From positions 1 through 64,000 of the IMG/VR virus record IMGVR_UViG_3300045988_055014: a stretch of DNA of 64,000 nucleotides; one strand, written 5' to 3'. A program made the position numbers and the translations under genes. The stretch comes from a virus. The notes under the pieces were generated by a model. It saw nothing but the letters and a program-made list of their open reading frames with translations. It had not been told where the DNA came from and ran no database searches. Positions 2,642 through 59,288 of this stretch are shown in pieces (position 1 is the stretch's first letter; every line of letters starts with the position of its first letter).

Positions 2642-3625
2642 TCAGCCTTTTTTAATTTGTTTAAATACTACTTTTTGTTCTTCAGCATTTGCAGTATTAG
2701 TTTCAATTAAGTTACCATATTGAAGTTCATTCTCAAATTCTAATATACATGGTTCTCCATCTCTTACTTTTAAGAAATGCATATAAACCTTATTTTTTAC
2801 AGGTAGACGTCTTACACCATAGATAGCTAGATTTAAGATTTCTGGGCGATGAACTGCTATTACGAAATCACTTGCTTGAAATATTGCATCAGATGCTGAT
2901 AAATCACTTCTCATAGGGAAGTGAGTACTTGGATTATTAATTCTATCAGGACTTTCAATATTTCGATTCATCTGTGAAAGCTGTATTATACTAGTATTAG
3001 AAAGTTTTTTCTTCTGTATAAACATTTTCTGTAAATCGACTATTGTACTTCTTTCTCCACCTTCTCCATTTACTAGAAGAACATGGTCTAATATTACTAT
3101 TAGCCAACGACCGTTAGCTACAGTATTATGAAAGTAATCTATAGTATTACCTATTTCTTCTACATTACATACTTTATCAACAAAGTATATATTGTACTTC
3201 TTAATGGTTTCAGCTGCCGATTCAGCTTTTAATAAGTCTTCATCACTAAGTGTATCTATTGAACTATATAATTCAGATACAGTTTTCTTAGTTTTATTAC
3301 TTATTACACGACCAACATTTCTGTAGTCTACCATTTCTAAACTAAAGTATAATACTACGATATCCTGATCAGGATTAAGATCAATTAAATCCATTACTAA
3401 CATATTTGCAACTGAGCTCTTTCCGCTGCCTGATATACCAGCTATAGTAAATATCATATTAGGTTCAATTCCGCCAGTAGCTTTATTGAATTTATCCCAT
3501 CTAGTTTTTAGAGATACTATACTATGATTTTTTCTAGCTTTAATGTAGTTTATGGATTTATTAGCTACCTGAGATATTGACTCAAAAGGTAGTATTTTAA
3601 CGGCATTCTGTTCCGTATTCTCCAT
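2642..3625 (-). CDS. DnaB-like replicative helicase (RecA-fold core)
   Basis: Walker A GISGSGKSS, Walker B-like LIVILDHVLLV, and a SQMNR motif typical of DnaB-family C-terminal domains. Confidence 0.6.
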   Translation of the reverse strand: MENTEQNAVKILPFESISQVANKSINYIKARKNHSIVSLKTRWDKFNKATGGIEPNMIFTIAGISGSGKSSVANMLVMDLIDLNPDQDIVVLYFSLEMVDYRNVGRVISNKTKKTVSELYSSIDTLSDEDLLKAESAAETIKKYNIYFVDKVCNVEEIGNTIDYFHNTVANGRWLIVILDHVLLVNGEGGERSTIVDLQKMFIQKKKLSNTSIIQLSQMNRNIESPDRINNPSTHFPMRSDLSASDAIFQASDFVIAVHRPEILNLAIYGVRRLPVKNKVYMHFLKVRDGEPCILEFENELQYGNLIETNTANAEEQKVVFKQIKKG

Positions 3626-18575: not shown

Positions 18576-18648
18576 TTCACGGAGTGGGACTCGAACCCAC
18601 ACTCTTAGGCATTGTCTGCTTGTGTCTAACCAATTGCACGATCCGTGA
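18576..18648 (-). ncRNA. tRNA-like element with a non-canonical anticodon arm
   Basis: 73 nt. Perfect 7-bp acceptor TCACGGA/TCCGTGA (U1:A72) and a canonical T-arm GTGGG-TTCGAGT-CCCAC. The D-loop AATTGGTTA is normal. The central arm folds only as AAGCA-GACAA-TGCCT (5-nt loop, one A.C mismatch, no U33), so no anticodon can be assigned. Confidence 0.5.
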
Positions 18649-18904
18649 CCCTTAGTTTTATATTCTATATCAAAGAATACTTTGAGGCGACTGTCACTAT
18701 TTCTAGCGTTCTAGCCTATTTCACAACCCCGTCAAGAATAACCGCTTCTCTTTAAATAAAGAGTTGATAAACTAGGATTACGGTATTACTCCCCTAGAGA
18801 TTATCACGCACTCAGGCGAGTATAATCTGTTACAAAATGTTTGTCATTTCTGACGTTTATTGACCTATTCATTTTCATCCTCGCTGTCAAAACCATAATG
18901 CCCC
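18649..18904 (-). ncRNA. ssrA: tmRNA-like, coding piece (5' acceptor strand + tag frame) of a permuted gene
   Basis: The minus strand from 18904 reads GGGGCATTATGGTTTTGACAGCGAGG, matching the tmRNA 5' consensus GGGGnnn..GGnUUnGAC. A candidate tag frame ...DYTRLSA ends in tandem stops TGA-TAA (18806-18801). The 3' end is placed at the abutting tRNA-like element and is uncertain. Confidence 0.6.
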
Positions 18905-19045
18905 AATGTGCCGTTATACGCTACGGTCAAACGGCAGCTAACGGTTCTTTGCTGCAACCGTGCGGGACACTCCGTTATTGGACTAGTTATATGTACACGT
19001 ACATTTTTAGTTTGTTCCAACTGTTTTATTCAACCGCAAAGGGCG

Positions 19046-19100
19046 TGGAGCATGAGGGAGTCGAACCCTCGTCCAAACGATTCATCCAATGACCTAACAG
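19046..19100 (-). ncRNA. ssrA: tmRNA-like, acceptor piece (T-arm + 3' acceptor strand) of a permuted gene
   Basis: Minus strand reads ...TCGTTTGGAC-GAGGG-TTCGACT-CCCTC-ATGCTCC-A (19080-19046). ATGCTCC pairs 7/7 with GGGGCAT at 18904-18898, including G3:U70. It lies UPSTREAM of the 5' half, separated by a 141-nt intervening segment (19045-18905). Confidence 0.65.
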
Positions 19101-19466
19101 TCAATATACTTTTATTTCTATAGGATTATCTCCAAAACACATATTTCTTTTATCAAATGGTACATAATGAGTACATAAGAATCCTGCATCATTAAATAGT
19201 TTAGCTGTACCTATTGGTACACTAATAGAATTATTATGTTTTAGATCTATCCACCAACTTCTTTTTGTTGTTTCATGAACATATCTAACAGGTTTATTAT
19301 AGAATAGATGTTCACCCCACATATCTGCTGCAATATAGCTCATGATAAATAATTTTAAGTTGTAAATATAAAGAGCTTTGCACACCTCTGCGCCTTCATA
19401 TCCTGGCAGATTGGATAACGCCTCAATTAGAGAGATATACATCATACACGAGTTTTCATATATCAT
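19101..19466 (-). CDS. hypothetical protein
   Basis: The track ORF starts at TTG 19487. The first ATG is at 19466. The stop TGA 19103-19101 directly abuts the tmRNA acceptor piece. Confidence 0.45.
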   Translation of the reverse strand: MIYENSCMMYISLIEALSNLPGYEGAEVCKALYIYNLKLFIMSYIAADMWGEHLFYNKPVRYVHETTKRSWWIDLKHNNSISVPIGTAKLFNDAGFLCTHYVPFDKRNMCFGDNPIEIKVY

Positions 19467-19572
19467 TGGGTTGATATAATAGTGCAATATACTCTTTTAG
19501 TAGTATAGAAAGCGATCAAACTCTCTATACTTAATATGTAATTCTAAAGTAATAGTACATACTGTTGATTAT

Positions 19573-20620: not shown

Positions 20621-20813
20621 AATAATAAAGAAATAGAAAGTTATACTATCTATTCGTACGCCTTATTTGATAGCTAGCCCTTTTCCTTCTCCTGACCTTA
20701 AATAAGGTTGACCGTTGTATAGTCCGTAGGTATTAATCACCTTTAGGGGTCTGGCGTTATAACCTTCTTTGTTGATTGGATTCTATCATAACTACTTAAT
20801 TAGTAATTCTTAA

Positions 20814-21619: not shown

Positions 21620-22099
21620 TCTTACATATTTAATAGTTTTAATTATACAACATTTTGAGGACGTCCAGCTGCAACTGGAAGGTTTTATCAATCTTAATTA
21701 TATATTAACACACGTTTTTACTATACGCTTACAGTAAATGAAGAAATTAATACGTAATTTATACAACATATTGCAGTATATTGCAGGCTTGACGATTCAC
21801 ATAGTTGTTCGGCTTCTACACCAATACAGCTTAATTGAAATACTAATTAAAAATGACTCTCACTTAGTTTTAACTCATAAGCAGATATAGCTGTCAAACT
21901 AATCTTATTGGAGTACATGGTTTTAACGTCTGCACTAATACTAATCTCCGCCACCTACCTTCAAACGGCATTTGAACTACTGTTCTCCTGTCATCTGACC
22001 CGATTAGATATAAGCCCCACATGTTTGTCACTGATTCTCACAGTAAGGAGGCAGCTGCATCTATTCTCACGAACCAATACAGCTTTGTCTGATTTAATT

Positions 22100-31184: not shown

Positions 31185-31257
31185 TGGAGCGTAACGTAAT
31201 GGTAGCGTCGCCGGCTCTAACCCGGTATGTGTGTGGGTTCGAATCCTACCGTTCCAA
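31185..31257 (+). tRNA. suppressor tRNA, anticodon CUA (reads UAG); Gln-like
   Basis: TGGAGCG-TA-ACGT-AATGGTA-GCGT-C-GCCGG-CTCTAAC-CCGGT-ATGTGT-GTGGG-TTCGAAT-CCTAC-CGTTCCA-A. All stems pair. The anticodon loop has U33, CUA at 31217-31219 and A37. U1:A72, G2:C71 and G3:C70 match bacterial tRNA-Gln. Confidence 0.85.
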
Positions 31258-31273
31258 CTAATTAAAATTAATA

Positions 31274-58120: not shown

Positions 58121-58259
58121 TGAAATTGCGTATCATAATATTTTCAGTTTATCATATAATAGCCAACTACTGAGAAGGACCTTACCACTTGGTAAAAAAT
58201 ATAAATAATTTATTAAGGGTTAGTAGTGAAATATCGAAAGCTCTTTGTAATTTCAGACT

Positions 58260-59288
58260 ATGAAGAAATTTAAGAATTTATATTAGAAGATAACAGATTT
58301 AGAAAATATAAAACTAGCTCACCACAATGCTAGAAAGAATAAAACTCACAGAGATGATGTAAAAAAAGTAGATGAAGATATAGAAGGATTTTGTAAGTAG
58401 ATACAAGATATGTTAATCAATCATACTTATAAAACTTCTGAATATTTTACTTTTAAGTTATATGAACCTAAAGAAAGAATAATATTTAAACTACCTTACT
58501 TTCCAGATCGTATAGTACATCACGCCATTATGAATATAATGGAACCTTTGTGGATTAATTAGATGATACCTTAGACTTATAGTTGTATCAAGAAAAGAGG
58601 AATTCACAAAGTTCTTAGGTAGATATAGCATGATCTAAAAGATAGAAAGAATACTAAATACTGTCTTAAAATAGATATTAGAAAGTTTTATCCTTCAGTA
58701 GATCACGATATATTAAAATAGATAATTAGAATAAAAGTATCAGATAGGGAACTATTATAGTTACTAGATGAGATAATAGATTCATCAGATGGAGTACCTA
58801 TTGGTAATTACTTATCTTAGTTCTTTGCTAATCTGTATCTATCTTACTTTGATCATTGGGTTAAAGAAGATAAAAACATAAAGTACTATTATAGATATGC
58901 AGATGATATAGTAATACTTTATAAAGATAAAGAGTCTTTGTAGACATTACTTAGAGATATAAAGTAGTATTTAAAAGATAACTTAAAACTATAGTTAAAG
59001 AATAATTATCAGGTATTCCCAGTAGAAAGTAGAAGTATAGATTTTGTTGGATATAAAATATATCGCAACTTTACTTTAGTTAGAAAAGTATTAAAGAAAA
59101 AATACTGTAAGAAGAATGCCAAACTGAATAAAAGAAGTACTAACTATAAATATTATAGAAGAAAGATGGCTAGTTACATAGGATGGTTTAAACACGCTAA
59201 CTGTTATTCTTTACTTACTAAAACTATTAAACATAAAGAGCTATTAGATTACCTGGATATACGTAAGGGAAATAGAACATACGAATAA
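58260..59288 (+). CDS. DGR-type reverse transcriptase (TAG read as sense)
   Basis: 342 aa through 12 TAG. Motifs PYFPDRIVHHAIMNIMEP, CLKIDIRKFYPSVDH, IGNYLSQFFANLYL and YYRYADDIVIL. Completely fragmented in the standard-code track. Confidence 0.85.

Follow-up and report, generated by a model that had tools for sequence, protein, structure and literature searches.

The minus strand of a 64,000-nucleotide stretch of viral DNA (IMG/VR record IMGVR_UViG_3300045988_055014, positions 1 to 64,000; here called the window) raises the question of whether this phage carries a gene for transfer-messenger RNA (tmRNA, ssrA) in a circularly permuted form, in which the 3' end of the tRNA-like domain is encoded ahead of its 5' end. 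An earlier note on this DNA, drawn from its letters and from background knowledge, proposed such a gene between 18649 and 19100, saw in it a resemblance to the tmRNAs of Bacteroidota and linked it to the reading of TAG as a sense codon. To judge from sequence comparison, the phage is crAss-like (family Suoliviridae) and the locus very probably a functional ssrA in circularly permuted form, most likely derived from a gene of Bacteroidota that lost its pseudoknots within phages.

The gene consists of two pieces on the same strand. The acceptor piece (19105-19046), recognized by direct reading, by ARAGORN, by alignment to an Rfam model and by covariation, encodes the 3' portion of the tRNA-like domain. 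Its first six bases, ATTGAC (19105-19100), are the outer strand of the P2 helix; the mid P2 strand TCAT (19092-19089) and a P2a strand (19081-19074) that includes TCGTT (19080-19076) follow. GGAC (19074-19071) comes next, as read directly in the sequence, and behind it lies the T arm (GAGGG-TTCGACT-CCCTC, 19070-19054). ATGCTCC (19053-19047) is the 3' acceptor strand, and A73 at 19046 is the discriminator. CCA is not encoded, the discriminator standing in the context ...CTCCA-CGC. An intervening segment of 141 nt (19045-18905), presumably excised, separates this end from the start of the coding piece at 18904. The 5' part of the coding piece (18904-18859), delimited by sequence, model alignment and covariation, comprises the 5' acceptor strand GGGGCAT (18904-18898), a D-loop analogue, TATGGTTTTGAC (18897-18886), a P2a strand (18886-18881) with AGCGA at 18885-18881, the mid P2 strand ATGA (18872-18869) and the outer P2 strand GTCAAT (18864-18859), the partner of the ATTGAC that opens the acceptor piece. 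C18886 is shared between P2a and the GAC of the D-loop analogue. The order of acceptor piece, 141 nt and coding piece is thus the permuted one.

Together, the pieces contain what is expected of a tmRNA. The strands GGGGCAT and ATGCTCC pair at all seven positions to give a tRNA-Ala-like acceptor stem of 7 bp with G3:U70, next to the discriminator A73. The T loop is of the GTTCRANYC type, the D-loop analogue has no D stem, and a long P2 helix links the tRNA-like domain to the mRNA part. The strings and positions reported in the earlier note were exact to the base, and the 141-nt gap, the complete acceptor pairing, G3:U70, A73 and the P2a pairing of AGCGA with TCGTT all hold in the window. Its limits need extension: the quoted pieces are right, while the acceptor piece starts further upstream, at 19105, and the element continues as far as a tRNA-like structure at 18648-18576. 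Behind the 5' part of the coding piece lie a tag reading frame closed by TGA TAA (18854-18801; ARAGORN and frame conservation), a 3' tail defined by side-by-side comparison of sequences (18800-18649) and a tRNA-like element (18648-18576).

Further evidence comes from relatives. A pattern built from two invariant blocks retrieved at least 118 IMG/VR contigs, mostly of 50-100 kb, and the same gene is present in more than 10 RefSeq genomes of crAss-like phages (Suoliviridae) spanning four named subfamilies. The IMG/VR matches yield 91 distinct regions, in most of which ARAGORN calls a permuted tmRNA. In a blastn search of GenBank phages the region was found in crAss-like phages of the family Suoliviridae, and the match overlaps a feature annotated 'transfer-messenger RNA, SsrA' in cr52_1, cr125_1, cr114_1 and cr60_1. 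When 31 distinct copies were aligned over five helices (29 pairs, the variable spacer removed), 99.7% of the cells were paired. Changes on both sides occur in 10 of the 29 pairs, distributed over four of the five helices, a level of covariation reached by none of 500 shuffles; if the partners are slid by 1-3 columns, only 0-1 pairs with two-sided changes are left. The three segments of P2 are paired in 99-100% of cells, with two-sided changes in 5 of 17 pairs, and P2a alternates between TCG/CGA and TTG/CAA. Three acceptor pairs show compensatory change, the variants being GGGGCAT/ATGCTCC, GGGGCTA/TAGCTCC and GGGGTAT/ATACTCC, and G3:U70 is retained in 31 of 31 copies. The T stem appears in four versions (GAGGG/CCCTC, AAGGG/CCCTT, AGGGG/CCCCT and ACGGG/CCCGT). 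Acceptor complementarity is therefore both conserved and covarying, the outcome for which the earlier note had suggested looking.

Dedicated detectors agree on the form of the gene. ARAGORN, which the earlier note had named as a check, reports at 18713-19135 (minus strand) a permuted tmRNA, marked with its starred tmRNA class, whose tag is VRNDKHFVTDYTRLSA followed by two stops. RF04321, the Rfam model of permuted tmRNA, aligns to 18859-19105 (minus strand) with 41.5 bits (E 1.2e-6 in a local search of 1.1 kb), the alignment covering the acceptor stem, the T arm and the three-part P2 helix. This model was built from alpha-proteobacterial, beta-proteobacterial and cyanobacterial sequences only and covers just the tRNA-like domain (PMC11915505). 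Its cut-off is passed by two relatives, cr114_1 (50.9 bits) and cr53_1 (50.3 bits). The Rfam check proposed in the earlier note thus came out in part: RF04321 aligns the same helices and relatives exceed its cut-off, but the window itself stays below it, and the three lineage-specific models RF01849, RF01850 and RF01851 give no match in the window at E <= 10. The sole match to any of these, that of RF01850 in cr53_1, is weak (27.4 bits; cut-off 84). Both the curated Rfam cut-off and ARAGORN miss many members of the family, cr6_1, cr4_1, cr53_1 and cr109_1 being among the examples. Shuffles, slid controls, the ARAGORN call and the RF04321 alignment together indicate that the pairing is not due to chance.

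The reading frame of the tag provides a further line of evidence. In the window it consists of 16 codons (GTC AGA AAT GAC AAA CAT TTT GTA ACA GAT TAT ACT CGC CTG AGT GCG), encodes (A)VRNDKHFVTDYTRLSA, has no start codon and ends with a non-polar, AA-like C-terminus and two stops, as in a tmRNA. The family tags share one conserved frame, as seen in GNTSYVTDYTRLVA, GNFYVTDYTRIAA, GKTFVSDYTRLSA, GNYSYITDYTRITA and VRNDKSFVTDYTRIAA beside the VRNDKHFVTDYTRLSA of the window. A core, [FY][VI]TDYTR[LI]xA, is conserved among 27 distinct 10-codon cores. Over these cores the third codon position varies at 10 of 10 codons, the first at 6 of 10 and the second at 5 of 10; replacements are mostly synonymous or conservative, and the final residue is Ala in every core. 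Third-position variation, conservative replacement and the invariant Ala form the pattern of a translated peptide, and the frame, judged by its codons, is under purifying selection. The window tag belongs to a VRNDK.. subtype that is two codons longer and common to many contigs. Its resume codon is GUC, after AAUAAAC, and most copies have GGC after AUAACU; the assignment of this codon rests on ARAGORN and on the shared AUAAC motif.

The form of the gene, its helices, its identity elements, selection on its tag and its lineage are thus directly supported, and from them we infer a course for processing, charging, tagging and proteolysis. A single transcript would give rise to two RNAs through RNase P cleavage immediately 5' of GGGG and again 5' of the tRNA-like element downstream, with the 141-nt spacer discarded. 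The acceptor piece (19105-19046) would supply the T arm, the acceptor strand of the 3' side and one set of P2 strands; the coding piece, starting at 18904, would supply the matching 5' acceptor strand, the remaining P2 strands, the D-loop analogue and the 16-codon tag. Base pairing in the acceptor stem and the three-part P2 would reassemble them, so that a short mRNA is linked to a domain resembling tRNA-Ala. Host enzymes would add CCA, and the host alanyl-tRNA synthetase (AlaRS) would charge the RNA by way of G3:U70. Presumably it is host SmpB that would, together with EF-Tu, bring it to ribosomes that have stalled on broken mRNAs. Translation would resume at GUC and append (A)VRNDKHFVTDYTRLSA, and the non-polar C-terminus (of the LSA, LVA, LAA or IAA type) would probably send the product to host proteases of the Clp type.

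The lineage of the gene is indicated by its ends. A 25-mer, GTTTGGACGAGGGTTCRACTCCCTC, is present in at least 120 genome contigs, and among the matches listed all titles name Bacteroidota except for one unclassified 'bacterium' metagenome-assembled genome. At these loci ARAGORN finds tmRNA in 92 cases, with 93 standard one-piece and 2 permuted calls; the one-piece tags include GENNYALAA, GNTNYALAA and GETSYAFAA. Bacteroidota tmRNAs run from 5' GGGGCTG..GGTTTTGACAGCG to 3' ..GTTTGGACGAGGGTTCGACTCCCTCCAGCTCCAC, a close match to the phage ends, and the D-loop analogue of the window matches theirs too. Phage tags start with GNTSY, and by eye the P2 internal-loop motifs UGUUAGGUC and AAUAGGUC resemble the host pair UGUAGAAAGC and GUAAGC. 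The likeness that the earlier note pointed out is thus real, as the matches to the 25-mer and the comparison of ends demonstrate. The phage gene most likely descends from a one-piece tmRNA of Bacteroidota, permutation and loss of the pseudoknots having taken place within phages. The tRNA-like ends and tag start of Bacteroidota type suggest that the permutation occurred independently of the alpha-proteobacterial, beta-proteobacterial and cyanobacterial lineages, and we consider it likely from these sequence features that the crAss genes form a further, independently permuted lineage of Bacteroidota-derived tmRNA. Some of the likeness may reflect convergence imposed by host AlaRS and SmpB. An origin from the alpha-proteobacterial, beta-proteobacterial or cyanobacterial forms was rejected on sequence grounds, the ends being of Bacteroidota type and none of the three lineage-specific models matching the window.

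Several observations weigh against a functional tmRNA and must be set beside the evidence in its favour. No tmRNA family is reported for the window at Rfam gathering thresholds, the 41.5 bits of RF04321 lying below its cut-off of 47. An unconstrained two-strand minimum free energy fold gives the acceptor stem but mis-pairs P2, which is why covariation was relied upon instead. The first of the usual pseudoknots (PK1) does not fit, PK2-4 are not recognized, and GUC (Val) is an unusual resume codon. Most relatives have an invariant element of ~30 nt, ACGGCTAAGCTAATGTCGTAAAAAGC(A/T)GG, after the tag; the window allele is without it and has ~150 nt of unrelated sequence (18649-18800) in its place. 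Finally, phmmer and tblastn with an E. coli SmpB query revealed no significant SmpB among the 110 ORFs (open reading frames) of the window, a weak test with no positive control, and scans of 10 neighbouring ORFs only against Pfam and PHROGs gave no SmpB and no informative family.

Could the gene serve the recoding of TAG? The window is 94% identical over the terminase-portal region to cr6_1 (Afonbuvirus faecalis, Suoliviridae), its nearest RefSeq genome. Beyond 32 kb (32.2 kb), ORFs on the plus strand reach 1,542 aa only when TAG counts as a sense codon, with 10-21 in-frame TAGs in each large late plus-strand ORF, so that the recoding proposed in the earlier note is confirmed. A suppressor tRNA with the anticodon CTA (31185-31258, plus strand; ARAGORN, Rfam tRNA 54.5 bits), 100% identical to the 'tRNA-Gln' of cr6_1, heads this late block at the switch point. 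The tmRNA sits in the early, standard-code block; in-frame TAGs number 0-1 in the minus-strand genes, a single ORF with three being the exception. The layout of cr125_1 is the same: it has a tRNA(cta), its large late genes contain 11-78 in-frame TAGs, its early genes contain none, and its tmRNA lies in the early block in equal position and orientation. In the two genomes checked fully (the window and cr125_1), tmRNA and recoding therefore occur together; as both belong to one family, this cannot separate function from shared ancestry. The stops of all distinct tags compared are TAA or TGA, never TAG, which fits a TAG-suppressing phage yet proves nothing, as the copies are related and their number is small.

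Once the suppressor tRNA is made, such a tmRNA would free ribosomes that pass the TAG stops of host and early-phage genes and would attach a phage tag to their products. That the gene serves ribosomes running through TAG stops is nevertheless rather doubtful from the genomic arrangement: its own block is early and not recoded, many phages without recoding possess tmRNAs, and the tag of another permuted phage tmRNA, that of Chryseobacterium phage MA9V-3, ends with TAG. Indeed, phages that have a tmRNA without reported recoding are common (PMC9004378). The full combination, namely an independent, phage-born permuted lineage that acquired tRNA-like processing signals and also became co-adapted to amber recoding, is accordingly judged unlikely.

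A different view of the gene would be suggested by its reduced architecture. PK1-PK4 are typical of the tmRNA family and are lost in reduced forms. Here, the distance from P2 to the resume codon is only 4-12 nt, which leaves no room for PK1. By structure drawing, the ~30-nt element of the relatives could form a small pseudoknot, and the last codons of the tag with its stop can be drawn by eye as a hairpin. An RNA without PK1-4, in an allele that has also lost the conserved 3' element, might bind SmpB and ribosomes as a decoy or inhibitor of host trans-translation and not act mainly as a productive tagger, much as a tmRNA-like RNA of mycobacteriophage DS6A that is devoid of a coding sequence is reported to inhibit the endogenous tmRNA in E. 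coli (PMC11915505). However, conservation of the tag at the peptide level, with its third-position variation and its invariant C-terminal Ala, would be expected only if the tag is translated, and the context of the resume codon, AUAAC-G, is conserved as well. A decoy thus seems quite improbable, and a productive tmRNA remains the preferred interpretation.

The 3' region raises the further question of whether the copy in the window is itself a decaying allele whose functional versions reside in relatives. It has the lowest RF04321 score among the copies tested, its ~30-nt post-tag element is replaced, and its tag is two codons longer. Yet none of the five helices is disrupted, and G3:U70, the T loop and the frame of the tag are preserved. 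The ~150-nt replacement tail, for which no Rfam match was obtained (18649-18800), is shared by the L059 group, which comprises three loci of identical tag sequence, one of them that of the window. The IMG/VR loci of this group carry the same allele, with compensated changes in the T stem of the adjacent tRNA-like element (GTGGG/CCCAC in the window, GTAGG/CCTAC in L059), and the VRNDK-type tag is common to many contigs. Decay of the window copy is therefore very unlikely.

It is hardly credible that the locus is a chance resemblance, a false positive of ARAGORN or a host ssrA fragment at an attachment site: the window has no Rfam tmRNA match at gathering threshold and phages do carry ssrA fragments from imprecise excision (PMC9004378), but the helices covary, conservation is family-wide, and the attachment-site idea is excluded since host genes in Bacteroidota are one-piece, whereas crAss-like genomes of lytic type have a complete, permuted gene at a fixed position.

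With a functional permuted tmRNA as the preferred reading, the regions that flank its pieces may be viewed as part of its maturation. The element at 18576-18648 (minus strand) has acceptor, D and T arms, and an 'anticodon' arm of 3-4 bp with a 5-nt loop, GACAA. It scores 33.8 bits with the Rfam tRNA model and is not called by ARAGORN. Its counterpart in relative L038 has the loop GAUAA and a compensated stem (GCA/UGC versus GUA/UAC). The short arm and 5-nt loop make decoding unlikely; by comparison, the element probably serves as a signal for processing. In the relatives inspected the same place is taken by a tRNA, a tRNA-like element or an acceptor/T-arm minihelix; cr60_1 has a real tRNA-Leu there and cr125_1 a minihelix. 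In the closest relatives (L094, L038, L026 and L061) the tRNA-like element directly follows the ~30-nt element, giving a coding piece of ~140 nt, and in L024 and some others ~100 nt lie between the two. These downstream elements, like the GGGG end, would act as signals by which RNases P and Z set the boundaries of the pieces. Across relatives the spacer ranges from 63 to 192 nt. That of 141 nt has a consensus fold of its own, with 7 compensatory pairs among four distinct 141-nt versions, and matched no Rfam family. In cr114_1 a full tRNA-His(GTG) (3070-3142; Rfam 63.1 bits) lies inside the tmRNA spacer.

Variant alleles occur among the relatives. In MT835473.1 (3398-3520) the upstream flank is 98% identical and the outer P2 arms and the tag are as in the window, but the tRNA-like module is different and shorter: ...GACGAGCTTTCGCCGGCTCTACCTCCA, a 17-nt spacer, then GGGGGTATATATG... 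It keeps G3:U70, has a non-canonical T loop and is missed by both ARAGORN and Rfam; an identical module is found in 9 further IMG/VR contigs. Another unannotated allele, in cr109_1 (2500-2740), has by eye the T arm GGGGC-TATCGTA-GCCCC and the acceptor strands GGGGCTA/TAGCTCC, and receives no ARAGORN call. In two genomes, cr4_1 (2097-2910) and cr6_1 (1880-2809), the T loop of the permuted tmRNA is split by a group I intron (RF00028; 74.9 and 96.7 bits, respectively). The inserted segment contains an ORF on the opposite strand, annotated as an endonuclease in cr6_1. By eye, the uninterrupted acceptor piece of the IMG/VR relative L109 matches the two exon parts of cr6_1. The split of the T loop explains why the cr6_1 tmRNA is unannotated in RefSeq; cr4_1 has no RefSeq tmRNA annotation either.

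Beyond the crAss-like phages, the cultured Chryseobacterium phage MA9V-3 (PV245944.1) has a permuted tmRNA of the same layout at 1464-1822, with the tag GNVIDINKYVAKLEVAA, whose first stop is TAG. In its outer P2 helix both strands have changed in a complementary manner (UCGUC/GACGA). MA9V-3, whose genome encodes a DNA polymerase III alpha, appears unrelated to the crAss-like phages. According to its paper a ClpX-like gene lies ~4 kb from the tmRNA. Cellulophaga phage Calle_1 has a standard one-piece tmRNA.

Upstream of the tmRNA, all on the minus strand, the window contains a Hatchet ribozyme (21915-22050), a RAGATH-9 RNA (20634-20779) and a RAGATH-7-associated RNA (19370-19497). The order Hatchet, RAGATH-9, RAGATH-7-associated (or RAGATH-20) and tmRNA recurs in cr114_1, cr52_1, cr6_1 and MT835473, and the gene keeps a fixed position between these non-coding RNA genes and a sigma-factor gene, upstream of the latter. 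On the evidence of this shared order, the Suoliviridae hold a conserved cluster of non-coding RNA genes. Elsewhere in the window, within the late region, an RT-17 RNA motif (58178-58260, plus strand; 44.5 bits) lies directly upstream of an ORF (58251-59288, plus strand) with the YADD motif of reverse transcriptases; the two may represent a retroelement such as a diversity-generating retroelement.

How much of this is on record? A two-piece tmRNA has been described in phage Melnitz, along with 53 tmRNAs called permuted by ARAGORN in phage genomes (Buchholz et al. 2022, PMC9004378). Table S1 of that paper gives 'Permuted' 53 times and so marks at least 11 crAss genomes, among them cr125_1 and cr114_1. 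A 2025 paper on a tmRNA database (PMC11915505) counts 79 phage tmRNA sequences; nearly all the forms in its tables for Bacteroidota are standard, and crAss phages are not discussed there. In the MA9V-3 paper a tmRNA is listed, but its permutation goes unmentioned. In the literature searched, crAss-phage tmRNA was found only in lists or tool citations, and no analysis of these genes was found. The novelty implied by the earlier note is accordingly limited, for homologues already stand in RefSeq crAss genomes as 'tmRNA, SsrA' and in the 2022 table as 'Permuted'. That the gene exists, and in what form, has thus been recorded, whereas no discussion was found of its origin, its reduced structure, the variety of its alleles or its function.

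What the locus adds is a stripped-down tmRNA in two pieces, found in a group of phages that is very abundant in the human gut. Its tag differs from that of the host yet keeps a degron-like ending. If the RNA works in the way proposed, the phages would take over ribosome rescue and, in infected cells, control what becomes of truncated proteins. The family also provides a natural minimal tmRNA without PK1 and an apparently independent instance of permutation, some of its alleles being split by an intron or altered in the T loop. Because MA9V-3 is cultured and has the same permuted layout, experiments are possible.

Among known systems the closest are the tmRNAs of RefSeq Suoliviridae (cr125_1, cr114_1, cr52_1, cr60_1, cr10_1 and cr131_1), which are homologous and have the same permuted order. 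They share with the window the architecture of P2, T arm and acceptor stem, the tag core ..VTDYTR[LI]xA and a genomic position beside RAGATH-type non-coding RNAs. The window differs in its VRNDK.. tag, its structured 141-nt spacer and the absence of the invariant post-tag element. Intron-bearing tmRNAs, with a group I intron in the T loop (PMC11915505), have the same insertion site as cr4_1 and cr6_1, whereas the window copy is intron-free; the combination of permutation and intron splitting seen in these two genomes is not among the forms tabulated in that paper. For a two-piece tmRNA carried by a phage, marine phages such as Melnitz provide the precedent (PMC9004378).

The two-piece tmRNAs of alpha-proteobacteria, some beta-proteobacteria and cyanobacteria (RF01849, RF01850 and RF01851, merged as RF04321) have the same order, with the acceptor piece before the coding piece; in both cases an intervening segment is removed, at least by prediction in the phage, and the acceptor stem and P2 hold the RNAs together. 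Unlike them, the window gene is of Bacteroidota type, has no PK1 and carries a tRNA-like element at the 3' end of its coding piece. The one-piece tmRNA of Bacteroidota (RF00023), presumed to be that of the host itself, has near-identical ends (5' GGGGC..GGTTTTGACAGCG and 3' GTTTGGACGAGGGTTCGACTCCCTC..CTCCAC). It also resembles the phage gene in that CCA is mostly not encoded and in a tag start of the form G-[NE]-[NT]-[NS]-Y. The host gene, however, is a single piece of ~390-400 nt whose tag ends in YALAA, whereas that of the phage is permuted, with a much shorter mRNA and pseudoknot part and a tag extended by VTDYTR[LI]xA.

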